Assembly (NCBI GenBank): GCA_039812585.1
Contig: JBDIAW010000007.1
Location: forward strand, 1,162-65,161
Direction: 5' to 3'
From: Actinomycetota bacterium
GTDB taxonomy: Bacteria; Actinomycetota; Actinomycetes; JBDIAW01
DNA length: 64,000 nucleotides
Below the pieces are notes generated by a model. That model was not told the DNA's origin. It searched no databases and saw only the letters and a program-made list of their open reading frames with translations. The translations under genes and the position numbers were made by a program. Of the stretch, positions 30,251-56,830 are shown one piece after another (position 1 is the first letter of the stretch; the number at the start of each line of letters is the position of its first letter).

Positions 30251-32478
30251 GGCATGGCTTCCTCTGCTGGGGCGGCTGGACATTCCAAACCGGTGCATTC
30301 CAGCCAGGAGAAATCTCGACCACAAAACTCGTCATAGAGTTTTTTGTCCGCCAGGATGTGTGGGTTAGTGACCACGGTGTAGTCGCGGTGAAGAAATTTC
30401 AGCAGCCGATCGGCCACGCTCGGATCAGGATTGTGCCACGGGGTGTAGCCCAGTAATTCGTGAAAAGTGCGTGCATAATCGGTGATCGCATCGTGGATGT
30501 CCCGCAGACTGGCAATTTGATCAGGTGTTCTCGTTTCAGGGCCAAACACTGGCTCGCCACCTGAAGAAAATCCCACCAACGTCGGTTGATCAGACGACAG
30601 CACATTTTCGACGAACATGTAGTTGTCCAACAGGTGTGACGTGGACACATAGTGGTTACCGCTAGTGAAAAGTGACTGGACAGCTAAGCCTTTTTTGGGA
30701 GGAAAGTCGGAGGCTAAGCGGACGAAAAAGAACCCCTGGATCGATCGACCCAACACATCCTCCAACGCCAATTGAGAGGTACCTGCCGAGACGAAGTCAC
30801 AGAAGGCAATCGTGTCTTCCTTGGTCAGTCCAAGATCTTCCAGATAGGTACGGTAATTCTTTTCTGCTTCTTGCGCGCGGGCTTGGATGGCCGGCCAGTG
30901 GCGCTGCACATAATCGACCCATTCTTCCCCTGCCTCTCGGGGGGAGATCTCCTGCGGATCCAGGTGGAAACGTTGGGCAAGCAGGTGCTCCGCACTGCCT
31001 TGGAAGGGAAACGAGACGGCATACTCCAAGCGCTGTGGGTTGACCAACGAAGCAAAAACCCCGCAGGCTCGTGAAGTGAGTAGATAGACCGGTTGGGGAT
31101 AGTGATGCTCACCTCGATGACGATGCTGATAGCCCTGGATAAAATCAGTAATGAGCCGTTGAAGAATAAAGCCGTCACGTGCTGCTACATACAATCGCTC
31201 ACATTGACCTTGTGTGCGCTCGAGCAGCCAGTGAACAAAGGTGGTGACAATCGGTGCAGTAAAGATGGTCCCGATATCGCTGTCATGCTCGAGACGAAGA
31301 CGTCCTTGGGTGTCATGGAAGATAAACGGATCATTGAAGACGTGCGAGGCGAACATTCCCACCTGAAGCTGGGTGTGGGGGGTCGTAGCGAGCTCCAGGA
31401 GTTCATCGAGGGCCGAGCAGTCCAACAGGGCATAAGGGGAGGCAATGAGCACACTGGACATTCCCCGCTGGGTGGCAGCTGCATCGTCGGCGTCGGGGTT
31501 GTCTCCAATGTGCACACAGGTCGAAGGGTTTTTACCTTCCAGATACACGTCAAATAAGCCATTGCATTTCGAGACGCCGTAGTCGCCAGACACCAGCAGG
31601 GTGTGTGGCCCACGCACCCCACAACGCTGCAACCATCCGGTGATCGTGGCGCTGGAGTGGTACATATCAGAAATCAAGGTGACGGGCTTACCTAGGCTCA
31701 GGGCATAGTCATAGAGGTCCACCACGGCTCGACGGGGGATCAGGGCTTGAGTTTCACAGGATAATTCCAGCGCTTGCAACTCCTGACATAACCATTGGGG
31801 CCAGCCGGTGTTGCGATGTAAACGTTGGTAAATATCTTCAAGGGTAGGGCTGCCGATCTCGCGGTTCAGTTCACCTTCTGCACCACTGCGTTGCTGCGCG
31901 AAACGGTCACAGTCATACCCACGAGCTGAGGCCTGTACGGCAACCAGATCAAAAATGTGTGCAGGTTGCAAAACCCGCCGGGTCATCAAGGTGTCGAAAA
32001 TGTCAAAACTAATAGAATCCGCCTGTGCGATCTGAGCTTTCACCTCATCGGAACTCACAGATGGGTAGGGATCGAGGTAGGTGTTTTTTTCTGCCAGCCG
32101 AGTCAGATCGCGTCCTTGCAAATCATAAACGGCAATGCCAGCCTGGCGACAGGATTGTTCTATGCGACGGAAAATAATACGCACATTGCTATTACGGGCC
32201 ACAATAACGATAGTTTGTACTCCAGAAGCCACTGCTTCATCCATACTCAACACCGGATACCCGTAAACCCGCTCACCTTCTCGTGCGGCATCCAACAATC
32301 CCACAATGTGATAATGCGGGTAATGGTGCACAATGATTTCAGTGCTTGCACTTAACCCATAAATGGCCACTGGAAGGTGAGGGTCGGTCACGATGGACCC
32401 AAATTGTTGCAGAACATAGCGTTGTTCAGCAGTTAACTGCCCTGGGGTATGACTGAGGTTATTCAGGGTGGTTGTCAT
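30247..32478 (-). CDS. multidomain protein: N-terminal Rossmann-like domain, HAD-like phosphatase domain (DxDxT), C-terminal uncharacterised paralogous domain
   Basis: PVAIYGLSASTEIIV...; ISFDIFDTLMTRR is HAD motif I; the C-terminal half is paralogous to 25625..26851. ~45-50% GC. ATG 32478 has a GAGGTG RBS. Confidence 0.65.
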   Translation of the reverse strand: MTTTLNNLSHTPGQLTAEQRYVLQQFGSIVTDPHLPVAIYGLSASTEIIVHHYPHYHIVGLLDAAREGERVYGYPVLSMDEAVASGVQTIVIVARNSNVRIIFRRIEQSCRQAGIAVYDLQGRDLTRLAEKNTYLDPYPSVSSDEVKAQIAQADSISFDIFDTLMTRRVLQPAHIFDLVAVQASARGYDCDRFAQQRSGAEGELNREIGSPTLEDIYQRLHRNTGWPQWLCQELQALELSCETQALIPRRAVVDLYDYALSLGKPVTLISDMYHSSATITGWLQRCGVRGPHTLLVSGDYGVSKCNGLFDVYLEGKNPSTCVHIGDNPDADDAAATQRGMSSVLIASPYALLDCSALDELLELATTPHTQLQVGMFASHVFNDPFIFHDTQGRLRLEHDSDIGTIFTAPIVTTFVHWLLERTQGQCERLYVAARDGFILQRLITDFIQGYQHRHRGEHHYPQPVYLLTSRACGVFASLVNPQRLEYAVSFPFQGSAEHLLAQRFHLDPQEISPREAGEEWVDYVQRHWPAIQARAQEAEKNYRTYLEDLGLTKEDTIAFCDFVSAGTSQLALEDVLGRSIQGFFFVRLASDFPPKKGLAVQSLFTSGNHYVSTSHLLDNYMFVENVLSSDQPTLVGFSSGGEPVFGPETRTPDQIASLRDIHDAITDYARTFHELLGYTPWHNPDPSVADRLLKFLHRDYTVVTNPHILADKKLYDEFCGRDFSWLECTGLECPAAPAEEAMP

Positions 32479-42176: not shown

Positions 42177-44366
42177 TCAGAGGTTCTTCACCTGACGGTA
42201 GAGATCGCGCAGTGCGGCGTCGGACATGTCGATGATGGGCTCGTACATGAACGAATTCACATGGATGTTCTCCGGCGTCATCAGCACCACAGTGTCGAGC
42301 GTGTTCACAGCCTCGGGCGTTCCTGCTCCCCGGCTCTTGAAAGCCCGGAACAGCGCTTGCGTCTGGTTCGCCACAATGGCGCCTGTGAAGACCGGGTCCG
42401 CCAACTTGTCGATCATGTACTTCTCCGCGAGTACCCTCGTGGCGATCGACAGCACGATTTTGTTCTCGAAGTTCACTCCCTCGGGCGCCGTGAGGGCGAG
42501 GTCGGCCTGCTCGATCAGAAGGTCCACCACGCGATCACCCTGCGGCGCCCACGCCTTGTGCTGCTGCTCGGGGAAGGTGTCCTTGAAGATTCGGTCGAGG
42601 TTGGCATGGGTAATAGAGTCCGAGTTTGACTTCCAGTGCAACAGCGACGTGAGCGTGATGTAGTCGGGGTCGTCCTCGCCTTTCGTGTACTCAAGGATGT
42701 TCCGCACGAACGGAATCGAGGCGATGCGCTGCATGCCGTCGGAGAAGAAGTTCACTTTGAACCCGCGTATGAACGGGTTGTTGACATGCTGAGCCTGGTT
42801 AAGGACAACCTTGGAGTCGCCCTTCTGAGCCATAAAGCACCGGTTATAGCCCACGACGCCGCGGCTGAGAAGCGTTCGGAAGAAGTCGAAGTTGTGCGTG
42901 AGCAGCACGAGCTTGAAGTCAGTGTGCTCAGCCATCTCTTTGAGGTACTGAATAATGGCGTACTTGTTCTTGTAGTCGAACGAGTCGGCAAGATCGTCGA
43001 TGACGAAGAGGGTCTCGCGGCCCACAGCCTTGCGCGTTTCCATCTCAAAGAGAACGTTGAGGATGTAAAGGGCCTTCTTCTCGCCCTGGCTCAAGACAGA
43101 CAGCAGGTCATCCCTCTCCACCCCCCTCGACTCGCCACCCTCCTCGAACTTGAAGATCAGCTTGAGCATGGCCTCCTGGCCGAGCGCAACCTTGTGCTTG
43201 TTCTCGGCACTCAGGCGAAACGGGACGAAGAAGCGGTCGTTGAAGATCCGAATGACCTTTTCCCAGTGCGTGCTCTCTTCAGCAGCCTGTTTCTCGATCT
43301 CCTTCCTGCGTTGCTCCGTACCCTTGAGGCAGGTGACGACGCGCTGGTACAGCTCCTCGCGCGTCTTCAGGTACGCCTTCCAGACCTTCTGCTGGAACGA
43401 GCCCACGTTCATGAGCTCAGGTAACAGCTCCTCTCGGTTAGCGATGAAGTTGAAGAAGTTGCGTGCGTCGACGTTTTTCTGCAGAGCCCTCTCGACCGCG
43501 TCCAGCTTCTTGCGGAGGGCATCGTCGTTCGTGATCCGTTTCTTTTCCTCGGCGATCAGCGCCTTTAGGTCGGCGTCGTTCGTGACTGTCCGCACTGTTT
43601 CTCCGTCCTGGTCGTGCAAGAGCAGTGAGTGCTTTGCGGAGAAGAAGCCGTTGTCGCCCAAACTCTTCGTGACGTTCGTCGCGTTGTAGAAGGTGAACGA
43701 ACTCCGGTTGAAGAACGGTGACTCGTCCAGGAGCTCGTTGAGGCGCTTGACATACTCAGCCAGCTCTGCCTGGACGCCTGGGGTGCGTAGGACGGCGTCG
43801 ACCTTGTCGTTGAAGAGGACGTCGTACGGCAGGTCCGCGAACCTGGTGTCATCGAGCTGGCCGACCTCGTACTCAACACGTGCTAACGCTTCGAAGAACT
43901 TGTCGGCCTCTGGGGTGAAGACCCTTGACACGGTGGCGATGACGTCCTGCTTCGTGCCGGACTGCTCGCGCAGCGCAGAGACCAGCTCGTCCCGCGCCTG
44001 GACGAGGTCGACCTGGAGGCCTTCGTACTCCCGTCGCAATGCTGCGTTGACCAGCAGAGTCGATGTGGACTCGGTAGGCCCCAATGCCTCGTCGTAGGAG
44101 AGCACGACCACGACGTCGTCCGGGTCTAGTTCGTCGCCTTTCTCGTCGGTGATGCGCCGCTCAGTATCCCTCGTCGGGAACATGCGGTCGGACGACTCCT
44201 GGCCGCTGGCGAGATCCTTGAACGTGTGGGCGAGCGACGTCTTCATCGTGCCGTTGGGAGCGTAGACCGCGACGGCGCGCCCGCTCGCGAAGTCGAACGT
44301 CGCATCCAGTTCTCGGATGCCATGGCAGTTCTTCAGCTCGACTTTGAGTTTCTCCATGGCCACCAA
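42177..44366 (-). CDS. Rad50/RloC-like ABC (SMC-type) ATPase with ~400-aa coiled-coil insertion and uncharacterised ~280-aa C-terminal domain; candidate defense/abortive-infection protein
   Basis: Walker A AVYAPNGTMKTSLAHTF at the N-terminus. Long charged helical region. ABC signature LSQGEKKALYILNVLF, Walker B LFVIDDLADSF, H-loop LLTHNF. ~58% GC against the ~67% background. Confidence 0.8.
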   Translation of the reverse strand: MVAMEKLKVELKNCHGIRELDATFDFASGRAVAVYAPNGTMKTSLAHTFKDLASGQESSDRMFPTRDTERRITDEKGDELDPDDVVVVLSYDEALGPTESTSTLLVNAALRREYEGLQVDLVQARDELVSALREQSGTKQDVIATVSRVFTPEADKFFEALARVEYEVGQLDDTRFADLPYDVLFNDKVDAVLRTPGVQAELAEYVKRLNELLDESPFFNRSSFTFYNATNVTKSLGDNGFFSAKHSLLLHDQDGETVRTVTNDADLKALIAEEKKRITNDDALRKKLDAVERALQKNVDARNFFNFIANREELLPELMNVGSFQQKVWKAYLKTREELYQRVVTCLKGTEQRRKEIEKQAAEESTHWEKVIRIFNDRFFVPFRLSAENKHKVALGQEAMLKLIFKFEEGGESRGVERDDLLSVLSQGEKKALYILNVLFEMETRKAVGRETLFVIDDLADSFDYKNKYAIIQYLKEMAEHTDFKLVLLTHNFDFFRTLLSRGVVGYNRCFMAQKGDSKVVLNQAQHVNNPFIRGFKVNFFSDGMQRIASIPFVRNILEYTKGEDDPDYITLTSLLHWKSNSDSITHANLDRIFKDTFPEQQHKAWAPQGDRVVDLLIEQADLALTAPEGVNFENKIVLSIATRVLAEKYMIDKLADPVFTGAIVANQTQALFRAFKSRGAGTPEAVNTLDTVVLMTPENIHVNSFMYEPIIDMSDAALRDLYRQVKNL

Positions 44367-44919: not shown

Positions 44920-45686
44920 TTAAGCGCTAGCCAAAGCCTGCTGGAGCGCGGTGGTCAGTGCCAGTAAGAGGAAGGTGACGAAGGCGGCTGCGTTGGCCTC
45001 ATGGTCGCTGGTGCGTAGGGCCGCGTAGTAGTCCTGTTGCCGGTCGCGGATTACGGTCTCCACGGGAAGGTAGGCCAGCAGGGGTTGCCAGCGGGTCAGG
45101 ATCAGCGACTGCCACAGGCGGCCCAGGCGGCCATTACCGTCGGTGAAGGGGTGAATGAACTCAAGTTCGTAGTGCACCAGACAGCTGCTGACCAGGGGAT
45201 GTTCATCGGTGGAGCTCAGCCATCCCAGCAGATCCCCCACCAGGATGGGTACGCGCGCCGCAGGGGGAGCCATGTGGATCAGTTGATCGTCACGGAAGAC
45301 CCCTACTCCACCGCAGCGAAAATGGCCCGCAGGCTCGGCCAACCCGGCCATGAGTAGGCCATGAGCGGTCAGCAGGTCTTCCACACGGACGGGATCCCAC
45401 GTGGCATTGCCTCATAGGCAGCCAGCGCATTGGTCACCTCCAGGATCTCGCGGGGATGACCCAACACTGGCTTGCCCTCGATGACTGCACTGACCTGCTC
45501 CACGGTCAGGCAGTTGGCTTCGATGGCTAGGGAGGCATGGATGCTGCGGATACGGTTGCCCCGCTGCAACTGCGGTGAGTTGACCCGTTCGCCTAACGCG
45601 CGTAAACCACCTACCAGTTCGGCAATCTCGGCCACCTGAGCGGTGATGGTGCTGCTGTGGGTGAAGGGGGGCGCATAGTCCGCCAC
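44920..45686 (-). pseudogene. Fic/DOC-family protein disrupted by a frameshift
   Basis: The N-terminal half (45369..45686, ...TVEQVSAVIEGKPVL) and C-terminal half (44920..45384, HPFTDGNGRLGRLW Fic motif) are in different frames and overlap by 16 nt. Confidence 0.6.
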
Positions 45687-45704: not shown

Positions 45705-46631
45705 TCAAAGCTGGGCCTGCCTTGAGGGTAGCCCCCCGGCACGTAGGTGCAGATGGAGGTAGGCGGCGGCCTCGCAGACCGGGTCGGGTAGGGGGTGGAC
45801 CCCGGTGAGAGCGGTGCGGTGGGAGCCTCCGGCCCAGACCATAACGGGAGGGTGTAGGGCGCTCAGGTGGTCGACCACCAGTTGAGCCTGCTTGACAGTG
45901 CGGGCGGTGGGCACGCCGATGACGGCAGCCGTCACGGGTGCATGGGGCTGGTGGGCGCGACCCGCAGCCTGGACCCACTCGGTGACCGGGACATCTGCCC
46001 CCAGGTACACCACGTTGACACCGAGGCGGCGCAGGCAGGTGGCAAAAGCGAACAGCACCAACTCGTGACGCTCCCCCGGTGGGGCGCCCACCAACACCAT
46101 CGGTGCTCCAGGGCTCACCTGGGCGCCCGCCTGATCGAACAACCCACCCAGGGCGCGCATCAAACCAGCGCTGGCGAAATGCTCGGCGGCCACTGAGAGG
46201 TGGCCGGTTACCCACGCTGCGCCCAAGCGTTGTAACTGCGGTTGCAGCCAGTTCTGCGCGACGTGTTCAAACGCAGCGCTGGCCAAGGCCTGCTCTACGG
46301 TCAGGGCCAACACGCCCGGGTCCAGAGACATCGCCGTTGCTACCAGGTCCGGGTTTGGCAGGGGGTGCTGCCCAGCGGCCTGCAGTTCCCCCGTGGAGTC
46401 GGTTGAGCTGTTCAGCACGGCTTGCGCGGCCTGGGCGGTGGGAACTCCAGCGGCCACCAATGCGGCCATGTGGCGCAGGGCTGCCACCTGGGTGGGGTCG
46501 TAAAGACGATAGTTACCGCCAGAACGCGCAGGTTCCACGATGTGGTAGCGACGCTCCCATGCACGCAATGTGGCTTGGGCCACCCCGGTCAGGGCACTGA
46601 CCTGCTTGACGGTGTAGCTAGGGCTGATCAT
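45705..46631 (-). CDS. MerR-family regulator with C-terminal cobalamin-binding domain (CarH/LitR-like light-responsive regulator)
   Basis: YTVKQVSALTGVAQATLRAWERRY HTH. Rossmann-like B12-binding region PGERHELVLFAFATCLRRLGVNVVYLGADVP. Divergent from the carotenoid operon. Confidence 0.75.
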   Translation of the reverse strand: MISPSYTVKQVSALTGVAQATLRAWERRYHIVEPARSGGNYRLYDPTQVAALRHMAALVAAGVPTAQAAQAVLNSSTDSTGELQAAGQHPLPNPDLVATAMSLDPGVLALTVEQALASAAFEHVAQNWLQPQLQRLGAAWVTGHLSVAAEHFASAGLMRALGGLFDQAGAQVSPGAPMVLVGAPPGERHELVLFAFATCLRRLGVNVVYLGADVPVTEWVQAAGRAHQPHAPVTAAVIGVPTARTVKQAQLVVDHLSALHPPVMVWAGGSHRTALTGVHPLPDPVCEAAAYLHLHLRAGGLPSRQAQL

Positions 46632-46674
46632 GGGGCTCGCTTTCACCAACGACTCCAGGCAGGGTAGCAAAGCC

Positions 46675-46749
46675 TGGACAAAGGTTGAACAGATCAGCTA
46701 GGGTCGACCACAACCTTGGACAAAGATTGGACAAACGATCCGTGGACAC
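46675..46749. promoter_or_regulatory. TGGACAA direct repeats with ~10-11 bp periodicity in divergent carH/crt promoter region (candidate CarH operator)
   Basis: cTGGACAAAGgTTGAACAgatc...cTTGGACAAAGaTTGGACAAAcgatccgTGGACAct. Confidence 0.35.
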
Positions 46750-46810
46750 TTCAGTGCACTCTCCCCTGACGGTCAGCCCCAGGAGGGATGCTGAGGAGAG
46801 TGATCAGGTA

Positions 46811-48421
46811 GTGCTGCTCAACGAGGTGGGGCAGCCGATCGGGCAGGCACCGCGCAGCAGCATCCATTCCCCCCACACACCGCTACATCTGGCCTTCTCC
46901 ACCTACCTATTCAATGCTCGCGGCGAGGTGCTGCTCACCCGACGAGCCCTGAGTAAGAAAACCTGGCCTGGAGTATGGACTAACTCCTGCTGCGGGCATC
47001 CCCAGCCCGGCGAGGAACTGGAGGCCGCCATTCGTCGGCGCATCCGGCAGGAGTTGGGGCTGCGCATAGGCCGCTTGATCCCTCTGCTGCCCGATTTTCG
47101 CTACCGCGCCACTGACTCCAATGGGATCGTGGAAAACGAGATCTGCCCTGTTTATGCGGCGGTGCTCAAAGACCACCAGCCACCGTTGATGCCTGACCCC
47201 GATGAGGTGGCTGAATGCGCCTGGGTGCCCTGGCCCCACGTTCTTGCCGCCGTGGCCGCCACTCCGCAGGTGTACAGCCCTTGGGCGGCCCAGCAAATCG
47301 CCCTGCTGGGCCAACACCCCTTGCCTGATCTGAACCCCCCGCTACAGCCGCCTGTCTTAAGCCTGCAGGAGTTCACCGCTGAGGTGGATGCCCTCCTTGC
47401 CCAGCAAACTAGCGCCTTGATCCAGGAGTGGGCCAGTTATACCAAGCAGTTGCGGCTGGACATTCTGCCCGAGGATCTGCCGGCCTGGTTGGAACACCTG
47501 CTGGTGGGGCAGGGTAAACGCCTGCGGGTCATGATGACCTTCTGGGGTTTTGCTGCGGCGGGAGGTCGGGCGGACTCCCCCGGTTATCACCACGCAGTGC
47601 GCGCTGCTGCCGCATTGGAGACCTTGCACTTGTTCGCGCTGATTCACGACGACGTGATGGACGAATCCAGCATGCGTCGAGGTTTTCCGGCTGCCCATGT
47701 TCAGGCCGCTCAGTGGCACCGGCAGGCCAACGCTCGCGGGGACGCGCCGGTGTTTGGCCGCAACCTTGCCATTTTGCTGGGGGATCTGGCCCACACCACC
47801 GCCGACCGCTTGGCCCAAGACCTGCCCGAGGCGATGCGCCAGCAGTGGTATGCCCTCTCGGTTGAACTCATTGCTGGTCAGCGGGCGGACCTGACCGCTG
47901 CGGCGGCGGGTCGACGCGAGCAGGCGCACGCCCAGCAGGTGGCTGACATCAAATCGGGCCACTACACCATCACCCGCCCGTTGCATTTGGGGGCCTGTGC
48001 GGCGCAGGCTAACTCAGCAGTGATGGCTGCTTTGACGCAGTACGCCACCCATGTGGGCCGGGCGTTTGCCTGGCGAGATGACTACCTCGGCGTGTGGGGA
48101 GATCCAGTGGTGACTGGCAAACCAGCCGGGGAGGATCTGCTGGAGGCTAAAGCGACGGTTCTGCTCAGCGTGGCCCAGCAGCAGATGCGCGGCTGGCCAG
48201 CGCACCTGCTGGCCCGGGTGGGGACTGCAGGGTTTGGTCCTTTGGACGCAGCAGCTTTGGCCCAGAACATGCACGAGGCGGGTGTGGACTCCCAGTTGGA
48301 GGCAATGATCGCTGCCGAGGTGGAGGCAGCTGTTGATGCGCTAAACCCGCGTGTTCTGCCAGCAAGCGCGGTGGCTGGCCTGGGCCAAGCGGCCCAGGCC
48401 ATCGCCTGGAGAGACGCGTGA
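46811..48421 (+). CDS. fused isopentenyl-diphosphate isomerase (type 1) / geranylgeranyl diphosphate synthase
   Basis: N-terminus VVLLNEVGQPIG...LHLAFSTYLFNARGEVLLTRRALSKKTWPGVWTNSCCGHP closely resembles E. coli Idi. C-terminus is a polyprenyl synthase with IHDDVMDE. One continuous frame. GTG 46811 has a GAGGAGAG RBS. Confidence 0.8.
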   Translation: MLLNEVGQPIGQAPRSSIHSPHTPLHLAFSTYLFNARGEVLLTRRALSKKTWPGVWTNSCCGHPQPGEELEAAIRRRIRQELGLRIGRLIPLLPDFRYRATDSNGIVENEICPVYAAVLKDHQPPLMPDPDEVAECAWVPWPHVLAAVAATPQVYSPWAAQQIALLGQHPLPDLNPPLQPPVLSLQEFTAEVDALLAQQTSALIQEWASYTKQLRLDILPEDLPAWLEHLLVGQGKRLRVMMTFWGFAAAGGRADSPGYHHAVRAAAALETLHLFALIHDDVMDESSMRRGFPAAHVQAAQWHRQANARGDAPVFGRNLAILLGDLAHTTADRLAQDLPEAMRQQWYALSVELIAGQRADLTAAAAGRREQAHAQQVADIKSGHYTITRPLHLGACAAQANSAVMAALTQYATHVGRAFAWRDDYLGVWGDPVVTGKPAGEDLLEAKATVLLSVAQQQMRGWPAHLLARVGTAGFGPLDAAALAQNMHEAGVDSQLEAMIAAEVEAAVDALNPRVLPASAVAGLGQAAQAIAWRDA

Positions 48422-49929
48422 GACGCTCCGGCTCTGCGCACCCTGGAGGAGGCAAAGGCAGGGTGGTCGTGGTCGGAGCGGGCTTGGCGGGGCTATCCGC
48501 TGCGCTGCACCTGGCCGGAGCGGGGCATGAGGTGATGGTGGTGGAGCGCGAGGCTATCCCTGGGGGGCGTAGCGGGTGGCGCGAGCAGGATGGTTTCGGG
48601 TTCGACACCGGCCCGGTGGTGTTCACCATGGTGGACCTGCTGGAACAAGCGTTTGCTGCGGTGGGGCGGCGCAGCAGCGAGTTTGTGGCCTTGCGCCTGC
48701 TGGATCCGGCCTACCACGCCTTCTTCGCCGATGACTCCCGTCTGCTCATTCGTCCCGGGTATGAAAAGATGCGAGCCGAGATTGCCGCGCAGTGCGGAGC
48801 AAAGGATGCGCGCGCTTTCGACCAGTTTCACGCCTGGCTCAAACAGCTCTACGAACTGGAAATGCCGCACTTTATCGACGTGAGTTTCAACTCCCCGCTG
48901 GGATTGCTGCGCTCCCCCGCCGCCGCTGCTCGGTTGCTGCGCCTGGGAGGGTTCGCCCGGCTCGGATCGACCGTGCAGCAGCGTTTTGCCGACGAGCGGT
49001 TACACCGGGTCTTCAGCTTCCAGGCCATGTATGCGGGGTTGGCTCCAGCCCAAGCACTGGCCCTTTACGCGGTGATCACCTACATGGACTCCATTGAGGG
49101 GGTGTGGTTTCCCGAGGGCGGGATGAATGCCGTGCCTCAAGCCATGGCTGCTGCGGCTGGGCAGGCCGGCGTGCAGTTCGCCTGGTCCACCCGCGTGGAG
49201 CACATCAACCCCCGCCGTGCAGGCCAGCCGGCTCGGGTCATCCTCGCTGGAGGGGAGCACCTGCGCGCCGATGCGGTGGTCATCACAGCCGATCTTCCCA
49301 CCGCTTATGAGCAGCTTCTGCCCCACACCCGCCCACCCCGGGTCGCGCGTGCAGGCTCCTACTCCCCCAGCGCATTGGTGTGGCATCTAGGAGTAGCCGG
49401 TCCTCTGCCCGACCAGGTGGGTCACCACAACATCCACTTCGGGGCGGCCTGGGAGCAGGCATTCGATGATCTGCTGCACCGGGGGGTGCCGATGGCCGAT
49501 CCGTCGCGGTTTGTCGCCATCCCCTCCCTGAACCACCCCCAGGCGGCCCCGCCGGGGCATCACAGCCTGTACGTGCTCGAACCGGTGCCTAATCTGCAGG
49601 TGGGTCGGGAGGTGGCGTGGCAGCAGGAAGGTCCTCGGCTGCGTGAACGCATCCTGGCCTGGATGGAGCAGTTTGGCTACCCCACGCAAATCCTCACCGA
49701 GCATCTGGTCACGCCGGTGGACTGGCAGCAGCAAGGCATGGCCGCAGGGACTCCGTTTTCCCTGGCGCACACCTTTGGCCAGACAGGGCCATTCCGCCCC
49801 AAGAATATCGACCGACGCCTGCCGGGGGTGGTGTTTGCTGGGTCGGGAACCACCCCAGGAGTGGGAATCCCCATGGTGTTGATTTCGGGCAAACTGGCCG
49901 CCCAACGGGTGCAGGAGATGCTGGCATGA
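48418..49929 (+). CDS. crtI: phytoene desaturase
   Basis: VVVVGAGLAGLSAALHLAGAGHEVMVVE FAD-binding fold. Typical CrtI length. Overlaps the idi-crtE stop. Confidence 0.85.
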   Translation: MRRSGSAHPGGGKGRVVVVGAGLAGLSAALHLAGAGHEVMVVEREAIPGGRSGWREQDGFGFDTGPVVFTMVDLLEQAFAAVGRRSSEFVALRLLDPAYHAFFADDSRLLIRPGYEKMRAEIAAQCGAKDARAFDQFHAWLKQLYELEMPHFIDVSFNSPLGLLRSPAAAARLLRLGGFARLGSTVQQRFADERLHRVFSFQAMYAGLAPAQALALYAVITYMDSIEGVWFPEGGMNAVPQAMAAAAGQAGVQFAWSTRVEHINPRRAGQPARVILAGGEHLRADAVVITADLPTAYEQLLPHTRPPRVARAGSYSPSALVWHLGVAGPLPDQVGHHNIHFGAAWEQAFDDLLHRGVPMADPSRFVAIPSLNHPQAAPPGHHSLYVLEPVPNLQVGREVAWQQEGPRLRERILAWMEQFGYPTQILTEHLVTPVDWQQQGMAAGTPFSLAHTFGQTGPFRPKNIDRRLPGVVFAGSGTTPGVGIPMVLISGKLAAQRVQEMLA

Positions 49930-50792
49930 GCCGCACACCTACCGCCCTTTTGGCTCAGGGGTACCGGCAGTGCGCGCAGCTGACCCGCAGGCACGGCACC
50001 ACCTACTACTGGGGGGCGCGCCTGTTGAGCCCATCCCAACGTCGGGATGTGTACGCGGTGTATGCGCTGTGTCGATTGGCCGATGACCTGGTGGATGAGC
50101 CGCCCACCGGGCCTGATGCAGCTGACTCAGCGCAGCGATTAGCAGACTTTCGCCGCACTTTTTTTCACGCGCTGCACCAGGGCCAGGCTGACCAGCCGGT
50201 GATGGCGGCCATCATCGCCAGTATCACGGCTCGAGGCATCGATCCCGAGTGTTTTGAACGGTTTTTTGACGCGATGGCCGCCGATCTCACCCACACCACC
50301 TGGGGCAGCTGGCAGCAGTTGCGCGATGACTACATGGAGGGCTCCGCTGCAGTGATCGGGGAGATGATGCTGCCGGTGCTGCAGCCCCTCAGCTCCCAAG
50401 CCAAGCAGCCTGCGCGAGCATTGGGCCACGCCTTTCAGCTGACCAACTTTCTGCGCGACGTGGCCGAGGATTTGGATCGCGGTCGGGTCTACCTCCCGCA
50501 GGAGGACTTAGCCCGACATGGAGCCGACCCGTGGCTTCGTCAGGTGACCCCGGCCTGGCGTGCCCTGATGGCCGAGCAGATCCAGCGCAACCGGCAGCTG
50601 TACACGCAGGCCCAGCTGGGTTTGCCGTTGCTGCCTGCGTCATCGCGTCGGTGTGTGAGCACGGCTTTAACCCTCTATCGCCGTATCCTCGATCGGATCG
50701 AAGCTGCCGACTACAACGTGTTCGCTGGGCGCATTCGGGTGCCCAGCCGGGAAAAGGCGTGGGTCAGCCTGCGCGCGTTAGCGACGCGCTAA
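49926..50792 (+). CDS. crtB: phytoene synthase
   Basis: YCRLADDLVDE and squalene/phytoene synthase motifs. ATGA overlap with crtI. Confidence 0.85.
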   Translation: MSRTPTALLAQGYRQCAQLTRRHGTTYYWGARLLSPSQRRDVYAVYALCRLADDLVDEPPTGPDAADSAQRLADFRRTFFHALHQGQADQPVMAAIIASITARGIDPECFERFFDAMAADLTHTTWGSWQQLRDDYMEGSAAVIGEMMLPVLQPLSSQAKQPARALGHAFQLTNFLRDVAEDLDRGRVYLPQEDLARHGADPWLRQVTPAWRALMAEQIQRNRQLYTQAQLGLPLLPASSRRCVSTALTLYRRILDRIEAADYNVFAGRIRVPSREKAWVSLRALATR

Positions 50793-52271
50793 CAGGCCAC
50801 GCATCGGCACGCTCCACAGGTCGTGGCCGGCGGTGCTCCAGCGCTGCAGCAGGGTGTTGGCGGCCAAGAATCCGGTCGTGGCCGCACGCTCCATCAGAGC
50901 AACGGGGTAGTCGCAGCGCACCCAGTCCCCCGCCACCACCAAGTGGGGCGCGGGAGTGCTTACTCCCGGTCGAGCCGCCCAGGGCTTGGGGTCGATGAGG
51001 GTGCAGTCATCCCGGAGGAGAACCTCCTGATGCACCACCTGGGCCGAACAGGTCTCGGGATAGACCCGATGCAGCTGCTCCAGCAGCTGCCCCACCACGG
51101 CAGTGCTGTCCTGCGTGCAGGCGTAGGCGTGCAGCTCCACCACACTGCCCCGGTGCTTCGCGCTCCAGGTGGCTGCGCCGCGCTCGAAGCGCTCCAGCAC
51201 CGAGACATTATCCAGCGGCCCATACCCGGCGGTCCCCAGGAACGCAGCACGACCAGGCTCCACGTGACGGTCTAACCACAAGCGCACCACAACAAACGGT
51301 GGGGCGTTGCGAGTGGCGGCCACCGCGCGCTGCCAGGGAGCCAAACCCGCATCCGGCAAGGCAGCGCAGAGGGCGCGGGCTTGACGCGGATCGGTAGCCA
51401 ACACCACCGCATCTGCACTGAGCTGGCCGCTGGGCGTATGCACCGAGGCACCAGTAGTGGAGAGTTCAAGGTGATGCACCGGGCAGTCCACCTGGATCTG
51501 CACCCCCCTGCTGGCCAGGTAACTGCCCAGCGGAGCCCACAGCGTGGTGTCGTAGTCATCTTCGGGCACCTCGAACAGCAAACCCTCCGCCGAGCCTAAG
51601 AAGTAGGTGTGAAACATCGCCACCAACTCCCCGGCGGCAAACTCGGTGGGGTCGGCGAAAAACGAGCGGGCAAAGACCTCCAAGGCTAGGTCCCTGGCTG
51701 CAGCGGGGAAGTGGAGGCGCTGCAGAAATTGCTCCGCTGATTGCCCGTCATAGTTGCTGTAGGTGTCGGGGAAACGCACTCGCAGCAGTTCCAACGCCGC
51801 AGGCAGATTCACCCGCGCCAGCCCGGCCAGGCTAAACGCGGGAGAGCGGGCGACAAAGTGCAGCATCGACCAGGGTGGGGTGCGTGCCAAACTGGTGAAG
51901 GTATCGCGCATCCCGTCGGGGCGTTGCAGTGGGTAGTCATCGATCGGGCGCAGAAACCCCAGCGTGGGGTCAATGCGGGCAAGTAGGGCGCGCAGGTTGT
52001 AGTACTGGCGGAAGAAAGCGTGAAAACCCCGACTCATGGTGCGCGTTGTCCCCGGCAGAGGCCACGCGGCCACCCGGCCTCCTAAGCGGGGGGTGGCCTC
52101 CAGCAGGCTCACCCGCACGCCTGCCTCGGCCAGGCCCGTGGCGGCAGCCAGCCCGGCGATCCCACCTCCAACAACGATCACCGACTGCTGGTTCTCAATC
52201 TGGGCGCGGCCCGGTGGCGCCCGATGCAACACGGCCCGGCGGTCCCGTCCGGGCAGGCCAGTGGTAGTCAT
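50778..52271 (-). CDS. carotenoid-associated FAD-dependent oxidoreductase (CrtU/CrtD-like desaturase family)
   Basis: VIVVGGGIAGLAAATGLAEAGVRVSLLE dinucleotide-binding motif. ~500 aa. Located in the crt cluster. Confidence 0.55.
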   Translation of the reverse strand: MTTTGLPGRDRRAVLHRAPPGRAQIENQQSVIVVGGGIAGLAAATGLAEAGVRVSLLEATPRLGGRVAAWPLPGTTRTMSRGFHAFFRQYYNLRALLARIDPTLGFLRPIDDYPLQRPDGMRDTFTSLARTPPWSMLHFVARSPAFSLAGLARVNLPAALELLRVRFPDTYSNYDGQSAEQFLQRLHFPAAARDLALEVFARSFFADPTEFAAGELVAMFHTYFLGSAEGLLFEVPEDDYDTTLWAPLGSYLASRGVQIQVDCPVHHLELSTTGASVHTPSGQLSADAVVLATDPRQARALCAALPDAGLAPWQRAVAATRNAPPFVVVRLWLDRHVEPGRAAFLGTAGYGPLDNVSVLERFERGAATWSAKHRGSVVELHAYACTQDSTAVVGQLLEQLHRVYPETCSAQVVHQEVLLRDDCTLIDPKPWAARPGVSTPAPHLVVAGDWVRCDYPVALMERAATTGFLAANTLLQRWSTAGHDLWSVPMRGLLARR

Positions 52272-52594
52272 CAGGTGTCCTCCCGGGGGTCAGGGTCAGG
52301 CTGACGACGTATCCACAGCAGCACCGTCAGGGTCACCAAAGCCCACCCAAACCCGAAGTCCTCCACGGGAATGTCCCAGGGCCACCGTAACCCCATATGG
52401 TGGCCTGGGGTGTAGAGCACGATGGGGGCGCTGAGCTTAGTCAGCCATCCATCCACCACACATTGGAACCCCGCAATGATCGCCATACTGATCCAGTACT
52501 GCGCTTGGCGAAACAAGCCCGTGCGCCACCACCGCAGTTCCAGGCCCACCACCGACAGCACGGCGAGCACAGTCAGCAGGGTGTATTCAGGCAT
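52271..52594 (-). CDS. crtYd: lycopene cyclase domain protein (heterodimeric cyclase subunit)
   Basis: Small 3-TM protein MPEYTLLTVLAVLSVVGLE... downstream of its partner. Start at the internal Met. Confidence 0.65.
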   Translation of the reverse strand: MPEYTLLTVLAVLSVVGLELRWWRTGLFRQAQYWISMAIIAGFQCVVDGWLTKLSAPIVLYTPGHHMGLRWPWDIPVEDFGFGWALVTLTVLLWIRRQPDPDPREDT

Positions 52595-52937
52595 CGTGCT
52601 GCTCCCGTTGCGCTTGGCGCCTAGCGACCAGGTGGAGGACCTGACCCACTGCCTCATAGGTGAGCAGGGCACACAGAGGGATCACCACGAAGAAAACTAA
52701 CTCCTCCAGGGGTAAAGGCCCCAGGAGGATCCCGGTGGTGAACCGAGGGCTGTAGGACCAGTGGTCACGCCAGATCCCCACCACGTCCCACAGGGCAAAC
52801 ACCGCCACGACCACGAGCAGGACTCGCGCCACCGTGCGGGGGCGGCGATACACCCGCGCGCGTAGGACGAACTCCAAGGGCAGCGTCACCAGTACGCAGG
52901 CGCCCATCAGCGCCAGGTAGTGATAGCGCTCATCCAT
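52587..52937 (-). CDS. crtYc: lycopene cyclase domain protein (heterodimeric cyclase subunit)
   Basis: MDERYHYLALMGACVLVTLPLEF typical CrtYc-type N-terminus. Confidence 0.65.
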   Translation of the reverse strand: MDERYHYLALMGACVLVTLPLEFVLRARVYRRPRTVARVLLVVVAVFALWDVVGIWRDHWSYSPRFTTGILLGPLPLEELVFFVVIPLCALLTYEAVGQVLHLVARRQAQREQHDA

Positions 52938-52948
52938 GACTCGCCCCT

Positions 52949-54148
52949 CTAGTGTCCAAACCGTAAACGCATCCCGCGTACGCAATACCCCGCGATCAGG
53001 TCATCCCAATGCACCTGGGGTTGGGTCACCAGACGGGGCTCTAACGCTAGCAAGGCGGTCAGCAGAGTGTGGGTTTCCTGCATGGCTAGTGACTGCCCGG
53101 GGCATTTGTGCGCCCCGTCTCCGAAAGACAGGCCAGTGGGATCGACTCCTGGCGGCACCTGACGCCCCGGGCGCAGCCGTTGGGCGTCGGCTCCCATCAC
53201 CGCAGGATCGGTATTGGTGTGGCGCACGCACACATCGACCAAATCTCCTGGGTGGACTTCGGCGGTGGAGTTCAGGGGGAAGCTGCCCACCACCCGCCGG
53301 TAAAGGTGACCCACCACCGGCTCCAAGCGAATGATTTCGGCCAGGATAGCCAGCTGGCCGCTGCGATCTGCCTGCTGATACTGCTGGCACAACTGCGGAT
53401 CGCTCAACAGATGCCAGGCAGCCATGCTGATGAACTCCCGGGTGGTCACCATGCCGGCGCTGGCGTAGGTGACGCACTCCACCGCACAATCGGCGTTGGT
53501 GTAGCCCTGGCTGATCAGGTGGCTGATGACATCGCAGCGTGGCTGACGACGCCGGCTGCGAACCGCTGGGCGCACATCGCACAGGTAAAAAAGGGCCAGT
53601 GGCACCAGCGCGTTCACTGCGGCCTGGGCCTGACGCGCCAAGCTGCGCCCACCCTGACGGCGGCTGGGATCAAAAGGAGGTTGGTTGAACAAACGCACCA
53701 GTCTCCGCGCCATAGGGCGCACCGGAGCATGTGTTAAGCCCACGACCACAGCGCTGACCTCCACGGCATACCACAACGCCACCTCCTCGAGCAGACACTC
53801 CCCCTGCTGCTGGGCCTGGGTCAGTAGGCGCTGCGCGCTCGCGGTCATGAAGGGACCGTACTGGCTGCCCACCACCGCCGGAGCAAAGTAGCGCGCCACC
53901 GCACTGCGCTGCTGGTCATGCAGCTGCCCGTCGGAGAACAGGATGGGGTGGTGGCGGAAAAACCGGCGGGGAATGGCCTCGGCGGCAAAGCCGGCCTGGG
54001 TGGTGCGCTGGCGCTGCCGCAACACTTGACGGGCTGCCTGCCAGGTGTGAACCCGCACGACCCCAGGCTGGTCAGACCGTTCGCTGCGCTGGAGGTCAGC
54101 CTCGTCGGCGGGAGGGATCGCTTTGCGCGCGGGGTGGTGTTGCCTCAC
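52949..54148 (-). CDS. cytochrome P450
   Basis: FGDGAHKCPGQSLA heme-thiolate loop; EXXR region. GTG start overlapping the marR stop. Confidence 0.85.
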   Translation of the reverse strand: MRQHHPARKAIPPADEADLQRSERSDQPGVVRVHTWQAARQVLRQRQRTTQAGFAAEAIPRRFFRHHPILFSDGQLHDQQRSAVARYFAPAVVGSQYGPFMTASAQRLLTQAQQQGECLLEEVALWYAVEVSAVVVGLTHAPVRPMARRLVRLFNQPPFDPSRRQGGRSLARQAQAAVNALVPLALFYLCDVRPAVRSRRRQPRCDVISHLISQGYTNADCAVECVTYASAGMVTTREFISMAAWHLLSDPQLCQQYQQADRSGQLAILAEIIRLEPVVGHLYRRVVGSFPLNSTAEVHPGDLVDVCVRHTNTDPAVMGADAQRLRPGRQVPPGVDPTGLSFGDGAHKCPGQSLAMQETHTLLTALLALEPRLVTQPQVHWDDLIAGYCVRGMRLRFGH

Positions 54149-54618
54149 ACCAAGGCTCGCATGGCTGCGGCAGATGCCTGTAGGTAGGCGGCAATCGTCT
54201 CGCGTTGGCTGGGGGTGATGGAGGCGTCCAACTCTTGCAACGCGCTGTACATGGGCAGCAATTGGCGCAGCACCGCTTCCCGTCCCTGGTCGGTGATCAC
54301 GACATGCATGCGGCGTTTGTCCTGCTCATGGGGTTGCCTGCTGACCATCTCTCGGGCTTGGAGGCGGTCGATGATGCCGGAGGAGGCGGCGGTGGTCACG
54401 CCCAGGCTAGCGGCCAACTCCCCCGGGCTACACGTGGCGCGCATGAGCATCCGCAGTGCGGCCATCTCCGTGGCCGAGAGGCCAGCTCGACGGGCGATAG
54501 CAGCGGGGACCTGTTCGGCCACGGAGATCAGCTCACGCAGGGCGTTCAGGGAGGGGGTGTGCTCCCAACGCTGGAGGAAGTCAGTAGCCGGAGTGGCTGG
54601 TTTGACATGATCAGACAT
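54145..54618 (-). CDS. MarR-family transcriptional regulator (CrtR-like by context)
   Basis: Winged-HTH LSATEMAALRMLMRATCSPGELAASLGVTTAASSGIIDRLQAREMVSR. Confidence 0.8.
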   Translation of the reverse strand: MSDHVKPATPATDFLQRWEHTPSLNALRELISVAEQVPAAIARRAGLSATEMAALRMLMRATCSPGELAASLGVTTAASSGIIDRLQAREMVSRQPHEQDKRRMHVVITDQGREAVLRQLLPMYSALQELDASITPSQRETIAAYLQASAAAMRALV

Positions 54619-54733
54619 GGCATTTCCTTAGGACGGAAGTCGTGCTTGGTCAAGGAGTGCACAATATAGCTAACGAGATTACTAACATGCTAAGCTACTA
54701 TGCCCACGTCATTGTCTACTCCTGGAGGAACCC
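54619..54733. promoter_or_regulatory. divergent marR/mmpL promoter region with locally AT-rich imperfect palindrome
   Basis: aatatagctaacgagattactaacatgctaagctactatg contains TAGCTAA/TTAGCTA-type half sites. GGAGGA RBS before mmpL GTG 54734. Confidence 0.3.
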
Positions 54734-56830
54734 GTGAGTGATCCCACCCCATCCGTGCGGCCAGAGCGCCTGCGCTTGACCCCTCGCCGTGCCGCGTTCA
54801 TTGCCCTGGTGATGCTAGTGGTGGGCTTGGCGGTGGCCGGCTGGGGTAGCTCCGCTCCCACCCGGGACCCGGCCGCGAACCTGCCCTCCGGGTCGGACTC
54901 GGCCCAGGTCGCCACGCTGGCCTCCCAAGCGCCGGCGGGGGGATCGGGCTCCACCACCGCAATCGTGGTCTACTCCACAGCCGTTGCCTGGCAACCGCAC
55001 ACACTGATGCAGGTGCAGCAAAGCCTGCGTCAAGCCGCCGGCCAGCAAGGACTGACTGTGCTGCCCATCGGCGCAGGCCCCACCCCTGAGCTGCAGGCCA
55101 GCAGTGACAACAGCGCCGCGCTGGCCACCGTGGTCCTGCCCCCCACCGACACCGCAGCTCTGGCTACCACGGTCACGACTCTGCGCGAAGATCTGCGCCA
55201 GCACGCCCCGGCTGGAGTCACCGTGCAGGTCACCGGACCTGCCGCAGTGAAGGCGGACCTGGCTAGCGTCTTTGATGGTGCCAATCTCAAACTGTTGGTG
55301 GCGACCGCCCTAGTCGTCACCCTTCTGCTGTTGATCACTTATCGCAGTCCGTGGCTGTGGCTGATTCCCCTCAGCGTGGTCGCCTTGGCCGACCGGGCTG
55401 CAGCGGTCTTGGCTACTCGGGTGCTGGACGGGATCGGGCTGGTCTGGGACGAGTCGACCACCGGCATTTTGTCGGTGCTGGTGTTTGGAGCGGGCACCAA
55501 CTATGCCCTGCTGCTCATCTCCCGCTACCGCGAGCTGCTGCGCCAGCGCGAGAATCGCTACCAAGCCATGGGTGTAGCGCTGCGCCAAACCAGTCATGCC
55601 GTGCTGTTCAGTGCTAGCACCGTCATCGTGGCAGTGCTCATGTTGGCCCTTTCGCAAGTGCCCACCTTGCGGGCTTTAGGAGTGGGCTGCGCGGTGGGGA
55701 TCCTTGTCGCGGTCCTGTTTGCCCTGGTGATGCTGCCGGCGGTGTTGGTGCTGTTCGGTCGGTGGGTGTTTTGGCCGATGGTTCCCCGCATCAGTGCGCA
55801 GCGTAGCAACGCGCCCACGGGAGTGTGGGCGCGGGTCGCTCGCCTGGTCACCCGGCGTCCTGCCCTGGTGGTGGCGGTGAGCCTGGGCGTGTTGCTGGCG
55901 ATGAGCGCGGGAGTATTCTCCGTGCGCAGTGGGCTGGACCCGGCTGATCGGTTCCTGCGCCAACCGGAGTCCATCGCTGCCGCTGAGAGGATTGCCCTCT
56001 CCTTCCCCGGCGGTAACGCCAACCCCCTCACCGTGGCCACCACCGGCCCAGCCTCCCAGGTCGCCCAGCGAGCCGCGAGCGTACCGGGAGTGGCCAGCGC
56101 CACCGACTCCTCATCGATGGCCCCCTTGCCCGACGGGTGGAGCTCCGTACAGGTGATCACTGCGGCTGCCTCCGACAGCGACGCGGCCCTGCAGACCACG
56201 CGAGCGGTGCGCGACGCTTTGCACGCTCAGGCCAGCCAGGCCGGTTTCACCACCTACGTGGGGGGCAGCATGGCGCAAACCCTGGACACCGATCAGGCTT
56301 CCTCTCGGGATCGCAGGCTGCTACTGCCGCTGATTACCCTGGCGGTGTTAGTGCTCATGGTGGTGCTGCTTCGTAGTGTGGTGGCTCCGCTGTTTCTGGT
56401 TGGTGGCGTGCTGCTGACCAACGCAGCCGCCCTGGGCACCTCGTGGTGGGTTTTCACCCACGTCTTGGGCTTTCCTGCCCTGGATGCGCAAACCGCGCTG
56501 CTGGCCTTCCTGTTCATGGTGGCCCTGGGGGTGGACTACACCATCTTCTTGGTCGTGCGCGCCCTGCAAGAGATGCGTAACCACGACTGTCGCCCTGCCA
56601 TGATCCGGGCCTTGGCCGCCACTGGAGCAGTGATCACCAGCGCCGGAGTCCTGCTGGCTGCCGTGTTCGCGGTGTTGGGAGTGCTCCCCCTGGTCGCCTT
56701 GGCCCAAATCGGCGTGGTGATCTGCTTGGGTGTGCTGCTGGACACGTTGATCGTGCGCACCCTGTTGGTGCCCAGCCTGGCTCAGTTGTTGGGTCGCCAC
56801 TTCTGGTGGCCCCGCCCGGTGCGGGGGTAG
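54734..56830 (+). CDS. MMPL-family (RND superfamily) membrane transporter
   Basis: 698 aa with 12 TM helices and two large extracytoplasmic loops. Typical MMPL sequence features. Confidence 0.85.
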   Translation: MSDPTPSVRPERLRLTPRRAAFIALVMLVVGLAVAGWGSSAPTRDPAANLPSGSDSAQVATLASQAPAGGSGSTTAIVVYSTAVAWQPHTLMQVQQSLRQAAGQQGLTVLPIGAGPTPELQASSDNSAALATVVLPPTDTAALATTVTTLREDLRQHAPAGVTVQVTGPAAVKADLASVFDGANLKLLVATALVVTLLLLITYRSPWLWLIPLSVVALADRAAAVLATRVLDGIGLVWDESTTGILSVLVFGAGTNYALLLISRYRELLRQRENRYQAMGVALRQTSHAVLFSASTVIVAVLMLALSQVPTLRALGVGCAVGILVAVLFALVMLPAVLVLFGRWVFWPMVPRISAQRSNAPTGVWARVARLVTRRPALVVAVSLGVLLAMSAGVFSVRSGLDPADRFLRQPESIAAAERIALSFPGGNANPLTVATTGPASQVAQRAASVPGVASATDSSSMAPLPDGWSSVQVITAAASDSDAALQTTRAVRDALHAQASQAGFTTYVGGSMAQTLDTDQASSRDRRLLLPLITLAVLVLMVVLLRSVVAPLFLVGGVLLTNAAALGTSWWVFTHVLGFPALDAQTALLAFLFMVALGVDYTIFLVVRALQEMRNHDCRPAMIRALAATGAVITSAGVLLAAVFAVLGVLPLVALAQIGVVICLGVLLDTLIVRTLLVPSLAQLLGRHFWWPRPVRG

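Follow-up and report, generated by a model that had tools for sequence, protein, structure and literature searches.

Does the MerR-type regulator gene that stands divergent from a set of carotenoid genes in the genome of Actinomycetota bacterium (GTDB lineage Bacteria; Actinomycetota; Actinomycetes; JBDIAW01) encode a light-sensing, vitamin B12-dependent repressor of the CarH/LitR family, and does the region between the two carry its operator? The question was addressed in a stretch of 64,000 nucleotides (assembly GCA_039812585.1, contig JBDIAW010000007.1, positions 1,162 to 65,161 of the forward strand), hereafter the window, whose own numbering is used throughout. In our estimate, with a probability of about 0.8, the locus is a class-I CarH/LitR photoregulatory switch in which two operators serve to repress both the carH and the crt promoter in the dark. 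This reading is carried by the architecture, motifs and fold of the regulator and, on the DNA side, by repeats of matching sequence and phase that exceed chance expectation, are conserved and occur in association with carH.

According to the Pfam search, the N-terminal part of the regulator (Table 1) belongs to MerR_1 (2 × 10−16), and B12-binding_2 was found at 25 bits against a cut-off of 23. The best PDB matches by sequence were those of the LitR/CarH protein of Thermus thermophilus (TtCarH; 3WHP and 5C8D, 1 × 10−26, residues 4-242), in an alignment that pairs the Wx9EH motif and the ExH histidine with those of TtCarH, W140, E150 and H151 corresponding to TtCarH W131, E141 and H142. The AlphaFold (AF2) model of the regulator, built from 20 sequences, had a predicted local distance difference test value (pLDDT) of 90.8 and fell below 50 only at the inter-domain linker (residues 80-89) and in the last four residues (305-308). 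All of the top 50 Foldseek matches of this model in the PDB were TtCarH entries, and the cobalamin-binding domain superposed on TtCarH chains containing the B12-binding domain only, with a root-mean-square deviation of about 2.5 Å and a target-normalised template modelling score (TM-score) of about 0.8. The best NCBIfam match was NF052513, the equivalog of the "HTH-type transcriptional repressor CarH" (124 bits, E = 5 × 10−36). Relatives of the regulator were found in Propionibacteriaceae, for example in Tessaracoccus, Granulicoccus and Raineyella, the nearest being 57% identical. A longer TTG-initiated open reading frame (ORF) was considered as the regulator gene and rejected, since 20 homologues begin at the equivalent of ATG 46631 (MYTVKQV) and a database record exists with a 308-aa protein identical to the regulator.

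The residues by which CarH proteins are recognised were found in the regulator. A MerR-type winged helix with an RxWERRY recognition helix is one such mark (PMC9304148); it is present as R23-A-W-E-R-R-Y29, with W25, E26, R28 and Y29 invariant and R27 nearly so among the 20 homologues. Another is the Wx9EH motif of the four-helix bundle, which caps the adenosyl group and, when intact, distinguishes CarH from the B12-independent CarA (PMC9304148). It reads W140-x9-E150-H151 in the regulator and was found in all 120 proteins of the regulator clade (P0001-P0120), which was compared with loci of the wider family (L001-L080); W140, E150, H151 and H189 were invariant in the 20 homologues. Since the Trp and the full Wx9EH are present, the regulator is not of the CarA type. 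The signature of light-responsive cobalamin domains, namely GxxW, EH, GxxH and GxxxP (PMC11796333), is likewise complete (G137AAW, E150H151, G186ERH189 and G211ADVP).

Opposite the regulator lie idi-crtE, crtI and crtB. The IDI half of the idi-crtE fusion reached 250 bits with the equivalog NF002995, whose cut-off is 127, and the three genes overlap by 4 bp each, through GTGA at 48418-48421 (idi-crtE/crtI) and ATGA at 49926-49929 (crtI/crtB). The start codon of idi-crtE is most likely GTG 46742, since a called protein is identical to the resulting 559-aa product, which is also co-linear with 14 relatives (543-556 aa); with this start, the carH/idi-crtE intergenic region comprises 110 bp (46632-46741). 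A previous sequence-only reading of this locus had taken the MerR helix-turn-helix joined to a B12-binding domain for the CarH/LitR architecture, which the Pfam domains and the TtCarH matches in the PDB and Foldseek searches bear out; it had also described the regulator as divergent from a translationally coupled idi-crtE/crtI/crtB operon, in agreement with the opposite strands and the two 4-bp overlaps, and had put the intergenic region at about 180 bp, a length that has to be corrected to 110 bp given the GTG start. In the 120 of 120 homologous clusters listed (P0122-P0240, about 550 aa), both the IDI and the polyprenyl synthase domains were present. The named clusters of this fusion are almost all from Propionibacteriaceae (Tessaracoccus, Propioniciclava and Aestuariimicrobium), and the fusion is usually named just "isopentenyl-diphosphate Delta-isomerase", so that its synthase half goes unannotated.

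In the intergenic region and at the start of idi-crtE, the hexamer TGGACA occurs on the plus strand at 46675, 46717, 46728 and 46743, and TGAACA at 46686, with start-to-start spacings of 11 bp, 42 bp (between the first repeats of the two sites), 11 bp and 15 bp. These repeats form two predicted operators, each containing a tandem pair with degenerate units at its flanks, and one out-of-phase copy, not a single array. The consensus tandem pairs, at 46671-46692 and 46713-46734, consist of 11-bp repeats fitting nnnnTnnACAn, which is the form and the 11-bp period of the footprinted CarH repeat (PMC9304148). An independent repeat search returned the same layout as a direct repeat of 22 nt, 82% identical and 42 bp apart (46670-46691 and 46712-46733). 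The start codon ATG of idi-crtE in relatives lies 3-6 nt past site 2, and the gap between DR4 and GTG 46742 is 7 nt here.

Taken over both strands of the 64-kb window, TGGACA is about as frequent as in shuffled sequence (39 copies), a count that would suit the view that the cluster is a chance feature of the intergenic region. The clustering itself is a different matter. Four TGGACA on one strand within 80 bp were found in none of 500 first-order Markov random windows, where the maximum was 3, reached in 2 of 500; strict pairs of the form T[AG][AG]ACA-N5-T[AG][AG]ACA occur twice in the 64-kb window, both times here, and none of the 500 random windows contained at least two. When both strands (128 kb of strand sequence) were scanned with a weight matrix built from the repeats of relatives only, site 2 scored 34.8 bits in tandem, the best value in the window, and site 1 24.6 bits, the second best, followed by 16.1 bits for the next candidate. 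Together with the in-register conservation of the repeats in 12 syntenic loci whose proteins are only 49-57% identical to that of the window, these results effectively refute a chance origin, the probability of which we regard as negligible. The candidates at 57699 (minus strand, 16.1 bits) and 54667 (minus strand, 12.4 bits) were rejected as CarH sites, being far weaker than sites 1 and 2, and a TGGACA cluster at 30624-30682 was rejected as an operator because it lies within a long ORF, on mixed strands and without the 11-bp phase.

The synteny with idi-crtE, usually followed by crtI and crtB, was present at all loci fetched by exact-protein look-up and also at L001 and L002; at the Pedococcus locus (L006) the divergent gene resembles an FAD-dependent oxidoreductase, not idi-crtE. 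One order of elements was common to 12 of the 12 loci, namely, the site-1 pair, a -35-like hexamer, 17-18 bp, TAnnnT, 6-11 nt, the site-2 pair and the start codon. The consensus of the 48 repeat units was A(C/G)nTTGGACAA, with T5 in 47, A8 in 46, C9 in 48 and A10 in 42 of them. Ten relatives have a distance of 61-66 bp from site 1 to site 2, which is shorter in Pedococcus (55 bp) and shorter still in the window (42 bp). Helical phasing or looping was considered as the cause of the near-constant 61-66 bp and set aside as neither needed nor supported, since the geometry of -35, 17-18 bp and -10 explains the distance and the 55 and 42 bp are exceptions to it. Nine further metagenomic loci had the same layout, seven with both sites and two (L096 and L097) with a single two-repeat site.

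Beyond these loci, a tandem TnnACA-N5-TnnACA was found within -250 to +30 of the regulator start in 40 of 79 CarH-family loci from many phyla, and across the 79 the density of such pairs was 2.49 per kb upstream of carH versus 0.052 per kb elsewhere. Where something other than idi stands upstream of carH (L003, L004 and L005), the repeats are kept. In a sample of 70 metagenomic idi or idi-crtE loci, 15 had a carH-like gene upstream; repeats stood at the idi promoter in 9 of these 15 and in 2 of the 55 others (Fisher test, p = 3.5 × 10−6). The remaining six loci with a carH-like gene and no repeats were rejected as exceptions, since there a same-strand gene runs into idi and they are not divergent carH neighbours. 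From the density, the carH loci without idi and the contrast at idi promoters, it follows that the repeats belong with the regulator and not with idi or crt.

These data bear on another explanation, in which the TGGACA repeats are -35-like hexamers or sites of some other factor, for instance an alternative sigma factor or the MarR regulator encoded at a distance of 8 kb, with CarH acting at other places. TGGACA is indeed one mismatch from the -35 consensus TTGACA, one copy is probably the crt -35, and the carotenoid supercluster does include a MarR regulator. Nevertheless, the 11-bp tandem phase and the sequence match the footprinted CarH repeat (PMC9304148), and the repeats track carH even where its neighbour is not idi, being nearly absent at idi promoters without carH. 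No sigma factor was found among the genes flanking the regulator, and TTAA, reported to be essential for the binding of the MarR-type regulator CrtR of Corynebacterium glutamicum, is unrelated to TnnACA (PMC6739363). We consider this explanation highly improbable and read the repeats as CarH operators. The claim of the sequence-only reading that the shared promoter holds an identifiable operator is upheld by their match to the CarH consensus, their register in the 12 syntenic loci and their co-occurrence with carH. The four to five repeats it had reported are present at the place it gave; their supposed even spacing of about 10-11 bp did not survive, as they form two pairs and an off-phase copy. 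Its expectation of a CarH tetramer on four to five repeats is right in that a direct-repeat operator fits, and is better restated as one oligomer per site.

Some loci of the comparison depart from this pattern in other ways. L090 (WBZS01000212.1), one of the two cases with repeats and no carH, is a second idi-crtE locus in the assembly that also contains L082. About 40 bp before its idi-crtE start, a TAGGGT box is followed by a tandem pair resembling site 2, TGCACAaacaaTAGACA; carH is absent within 1.4 kb, and the locus may be a trans-regulated member of a CarH regulon. A short intergenic region upstream of 6001 at L005 (Ornithinimicrobium sp. Y1847) has MerR/CarH-like genes on both sides, divergent from each other, one with RAWERRY and the other with RAWENRY. 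It contains TGGACAG-ACC-TGGACAC-AGGT-TAGACG, with repeats at 10-11 bp, and the two genes may encode paralogous regulators with a common operator. In Aestuariimicrobium kwangyangense (L023), upstream of 6001, the carH-proximal site TAGACAAAACCTCAGCTTGTCTA shows the same half-site in inverted, not direct, orientation, so that the operator geometry may differ in Aestuariimicrobium.

Promoters were placed by conserved TAnnnT boxes. For carH, a TAnnnT was found at the same place in the 11-nt unit before DR1 in 10 of the 12 syntenic loci (for example TAGCGT, TAGCAT or TACCCT; not in L088 and L089). For crt, reading by eye showed a TAnnnT in 12 of 12 loci (CATGAT in L006), separated from the downstream site 2 by 6-11 nt. 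Most relatives have a separate TTGCnC or TTGACG directly after DR2, 17-18 bp upstream of the -10, and the window is without the approximately 21 bp that hold this separate -35; here, the TGGACA of DR1 presumably serves as the crt -35. The possibility that site 2 itself is a -35 with its -10 in the coding region was rejected because relatives show no conserved TAnnnT 17 bp downstream. Rfam, run over the entire window, returned no family at the gathering score, including no cobalamin riboswitch.

In characterised systems, CarH oligomers bound to adenosylcobalamin (AdoCbl) bind tandem 11-bp repeats overlapping the -35 or -10, and light breaks the Co-C bond and frees the DNA (PMC9304148, PMC5401885, PMC10442372). 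For the present locus, we infer B12 binding, the oligomeric state, the light response, the promoter positions and the polarity of repression, light induction and B12 dependence being expected from homology to these systems. In the dark, an AdoCbl-bound oligomer of the regulator, probably a tetramer, would occupy the two operators of the 110-bp intergenic region. At site 1 it would cover the carH -10 (TACCCT) and the carH -35 region under DR2, as well as the crt -35 in DR1, the carH transcript being predicted to start near 46654; at site 2, just downstream of the predicted crt -10, it would cover the putative start of crt transcription near 46711, the leader of about 30 nt and the GTG start codon. 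RNA polymerase would be blocked at both divergent promoters. Under ultraviolet, blue or green light, photolysis of the Co-C bond would deprive the oligomer of its affinity for DNA, carH and the translationally coupled idi-crtE-crtI-crtB would be transcribed, and prenyl precursors would be committed to lycopene only in the light.

Table 1. Positions of the genes, predicted promoter elements and predicted operator units in the window
Feature	Position	Strand	Remarks
carH/litR-type regulator gene	45705..46631	-	308 aa, start ATG 46631; MerR winged helix-turn-helix, four-helix bundle and Rossmann B12-binding domain
Predicted operator site 1	46660..46703	+	four 11-bp units; direct repeats (DR) 1 and 2 fit nnnnTnnACAn
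Site 1, unit dr0 (degenerate)			CAGGGTAGCAA
Site 1, unit DR1			AGCCTGGACAA
Site 1, unit DR2			AGGTTGAACAG
Site 1, unit 4			ATCAGCTAGGG
Predicted -10 of the carH promoter	46661..46666	-	TACCCT (minus strand), within dr0; from conservation
Predicted -35 of the crt promoter	46675..46680	+	TGGACA, embedded in DR1, 18 bp upstream of TAGGGT; putative
Predicted -10 of the crt promoter	46699..46704	+	TAGGGT; from the conserved TAnnnT
Predicted operator site 2	46713..46745	+	DR3 and DR4, followed by one degenerate unit; lies just before the start codon of idi-crtE
Site 2, unit DR3			ACCTTGGACAA
Site 2, unit DR4			AGATTGGACAA
Site 2, degenerate third unit			ACGATCCGTGG
Fifth copy, TGGACAC	46743..46749	+	15 bp after DR4, off the 11-bp phase; overlaps GTG 46742; position not conserved among relatives
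idi-crtE fusion	46742..48421	+	type-1 isopentenyl diphosphate isomerase and polyprenyl (presumed geranylgeranyl) diphosphate synthase; 559 aa; NUDIX and polyprenyl_synt (Pfam)
crtI, phytoene desaturase	48418..49929	+	TIGR02734 crtI_fam, 485 bits, cut-off 238
crtB, phytoene synthase	49926..50792	+	SQS_PSY (Pfam), 224 bits; phytoene synthase assignment from context
Amine-oxidase-type desaturase	50778..52271	-	497 aa; possibly CrtU-like; best NCBIfam match, HpnE, is under its cut-off
Two lycopene-cyclase half-genes	52587..52985 and 52271..52672	-	
P450	52949..54148	-	
MarR regulator	54145..54618	-	MarR_2 at 1 × 10−12; divergent from MMPL
MMPL transporter	54734..56830	+	

Several observations weigh against this model and have to be set beside it. 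The Pfam B12-binding domain of the regulator scored 28.6 bits, just below the cut-off of 32.1, and the 124 bits obtained with NF052513 are far below the equivalog cut-off of 400; judged by this score, the regulator is related to that narrow equivalog group and stands outside it. The classic B12 motif, D/ExHx2G/P-x41-SxT/V-x22-27-GG, in which the His is the lower axial ligand, is only partly kept: E187-x-H189 and G268-G269 are retained, the third residue after the His is Val (V192) and not Gly or Pro, and the Ser position is Ala. Gly or Pro stands at this third position in only 22 of 98 clade proteins, whereas the wider family has it in 50 of 57 loci, and it is replaced by Ala, Met or Val in 76 of the 98 Propionibacteriaceae-type CarH proteins, a clade-specific change of the B12 pocket. 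In TtCarH, His132, directly after the Trp, is the upper ligand of the bis-His light state; without it, TtCarH stays largely tetrameric after illumination, and this His is reported to be necessary for dissociation of the tetramer (PMC10442372). The corresponding residue of the regulator is V141. As regards the DNA, there are two consensus repeats per site here versus three in TtCarH and four in the CarH of Bacillus megaterium (BmCarH) (PMC9304148), and a scan of 46500-46900 for promoters and terminators of the Escherichia coli type found none, with a model that is uninformative for a high-GC actinobacterium.

The pocket changes lead to the only serious rival, according to which a protein built like CarH does bind the repeats and yet is not an AdoCbl photoreceptor, acting instead like CarA or class II/III LitR, independent of B12 or dependent on another signal or partner protein. 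B12 and light would in that case not gate carotenogenesis directly. The replacement of the ExHxxG Gly by Val (most clade members have Ala or Met there) and of the motif Ser by Ala, the sub-threshold Pfam score and the missing upper-ligand His (PMC10442372) would all agree with this, and B12-independent members of the family are known (PMC9304148, PMC9758184). Against it stand the Wx9EH motif, intact with its Trp here and in 120 of 120 clade proteins (PMC9304148), the invariant lower-axial His and the presence of all four light-signature elements, including GxxxP (PMC11796333). Moreover, few proteins of the clade (3 of 120) and few loci of the wider family (11 of 57) have a His after the Wx9EH Trp, so that this residue is not family-defining and members of the family often do without it. 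In our view, a variant that is independent of B12 or does not respond to light is unlikely, and the AdoCbl-dependent CarH/LitR switch is retained as the preferred reading.

Compared with known systems, the regulator shares with T. thermophilus CarH (LitR, TT_P0056; 5C8D/5C8E/5C8F) the three-module architecture, the fold, RxWERRY, Wx9EH and the lower-axial His. The TtCarH gene is likewise divergent from a carotenoid gene, its operator of tandem 11-bp nnnnTnnACAn repeats lies over the -35, and the protein represses its own gene (PMC9304148, PMC5401885). However, the identity is about 29%, TtCarH has one operator of three contiguous repeats whereas two operators of two consensus repeats are predicted here, and both His132 and the ExHxxG Gly are Val in the regulator of the window. 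In addition, the crt operon of Thermus also requires the activator LdrP (PMC5401885), whereas no CRP-family gene adjoins the regulator in the window. In B. megaterium, CarH/LitR represses crt promoters directly, with the housekeeping sigma factor and no dedicated one (PMC5401885), through tandem 11-bp repeat operators that include degenerate units and lie over the -35 or -10 (PMC9304148), as is proposed here; it differs in its four tandem units (four repeats, or three and a degenerate one). BmCarH is a tetramer in the apo form and a dimer in the light state.

The closest precedent for the layout is myxobacterial CarH of Sorangiineae and Nannocystineae (Haliangium ochraceum and Sorangium cellulosum), with two operators for divergent promoter pairs (PMC9304148); these belong to another phylum and gene order, and their operators lie over the -35 and -10, whereas site 2 here is predicted downstream of the -10. 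The LitR-LitS system of Streptomyces coelicolor and S. griseus is also actinobacterial, with a class-I B12-dependent LitR and light-induced carotenogenesis (PMC5401885, PMC11519972). In Streptomyces, however, LitR controls the extracytoplasmic function (ECF) sigma factor LitS, which transcribes the crt operons, whereas here the predicted operator lies on the crt promoter itself. The neighbours of the regulator are an apparently split Fic-domain gene downstream and the divergent idi-crtE, with no litS-like sigma gene adjoining. Since neither a sigma factor gene nor a CRP-type activator gene adjoins the regulator, control at this locus would be most like the direct mode of B. megaterium, and not like the LitR-LitS relay of Streptomyces or the LdrP relay of Thermus.

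In terms of novelty, the regulator is an ordinary member of the well-known B12-dependent light-sensing repressor family (CarH/LitR), the clade-wide changes of the B12 pocket, like the division of the operator into two with site 2 over the leader, are variation within the documented plasticity of this family, and the current understanding of it is unchanged by the locus. Literature searches found no CarH/LitR paper for Propionibacteriaceae or Tessaracoccus. The value of the locus lies in an operator with exact base coordinates, in the prediction of light- and B12-dependent pigmentation in Tessaracoccus and other Propionibacteriaceae, in the compactness of a bipartite operator where one repeat doubles as the predicted -35, and in the clade as a natural experiment on the B12-motif Gly and the upper-ligand His132, both deemed important in the Thermus model. 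In applied terms, the repressor and its 22-bp site are a candidate compact B12/green-light switch for a high-GC Gram-positive background.

A second carotenoid operon (50778-54618, minus strand) is convergent with crtB, and no CarH repeat pair was found near this late operon in the matrix scan of the window. Its MarR gene heads the operon and is divergent from an MMPL gene. MarR-family regulators of the CrtR type, in C. glutamicum and relatives, are described as standing divergent from mmpl, crtE or idi in carotenoid clusters (PMC5401885); CrtR, a carotenoid repressor, belongs to a family other than that of CarH-type regulators, and the MarR gene of the window is not associated with TGGACA repeats. 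The MarR-MMPL intergenic region contains a 16-nt imperfect inverted repeat (54650-54665 and 54711-54726). A two-tier cascade can be imagined, in which the CarH variant, with its non-canonical B12 pocket and no upper-ligand His, would use the bipartite operator to gate the early operon only, and a resulting rise in prenyl diphosphates would release the CrtR-like MarR and switch on the late operon and the MMPL exporter; we hold this to be rather doubtful. If true, it would be a light-to-metabolite feed-forward joining the two known modes of actinobacterial carotenoid photoregulation, and light release in this clade would have to work without the bis-His switch of TtCarH.

Two other features of the minus strand were noted on the far side of carH. 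A 729-aa ORF at 42177-44366, unrelated to the carotenoid genes, gave weak matches to AAA_13 and SMC_N, both below the Pfam cut-offs. Downstream of carH, at 44920-45686, a Fic-family gene is seemingly split by a frameshift, a 105-aa N-terminal ORF (45369..45686) overlapping a 154-aa Fic-domain ORF (44920..45384) in another frame, and the same split was called in an independent Logan contig (L081).

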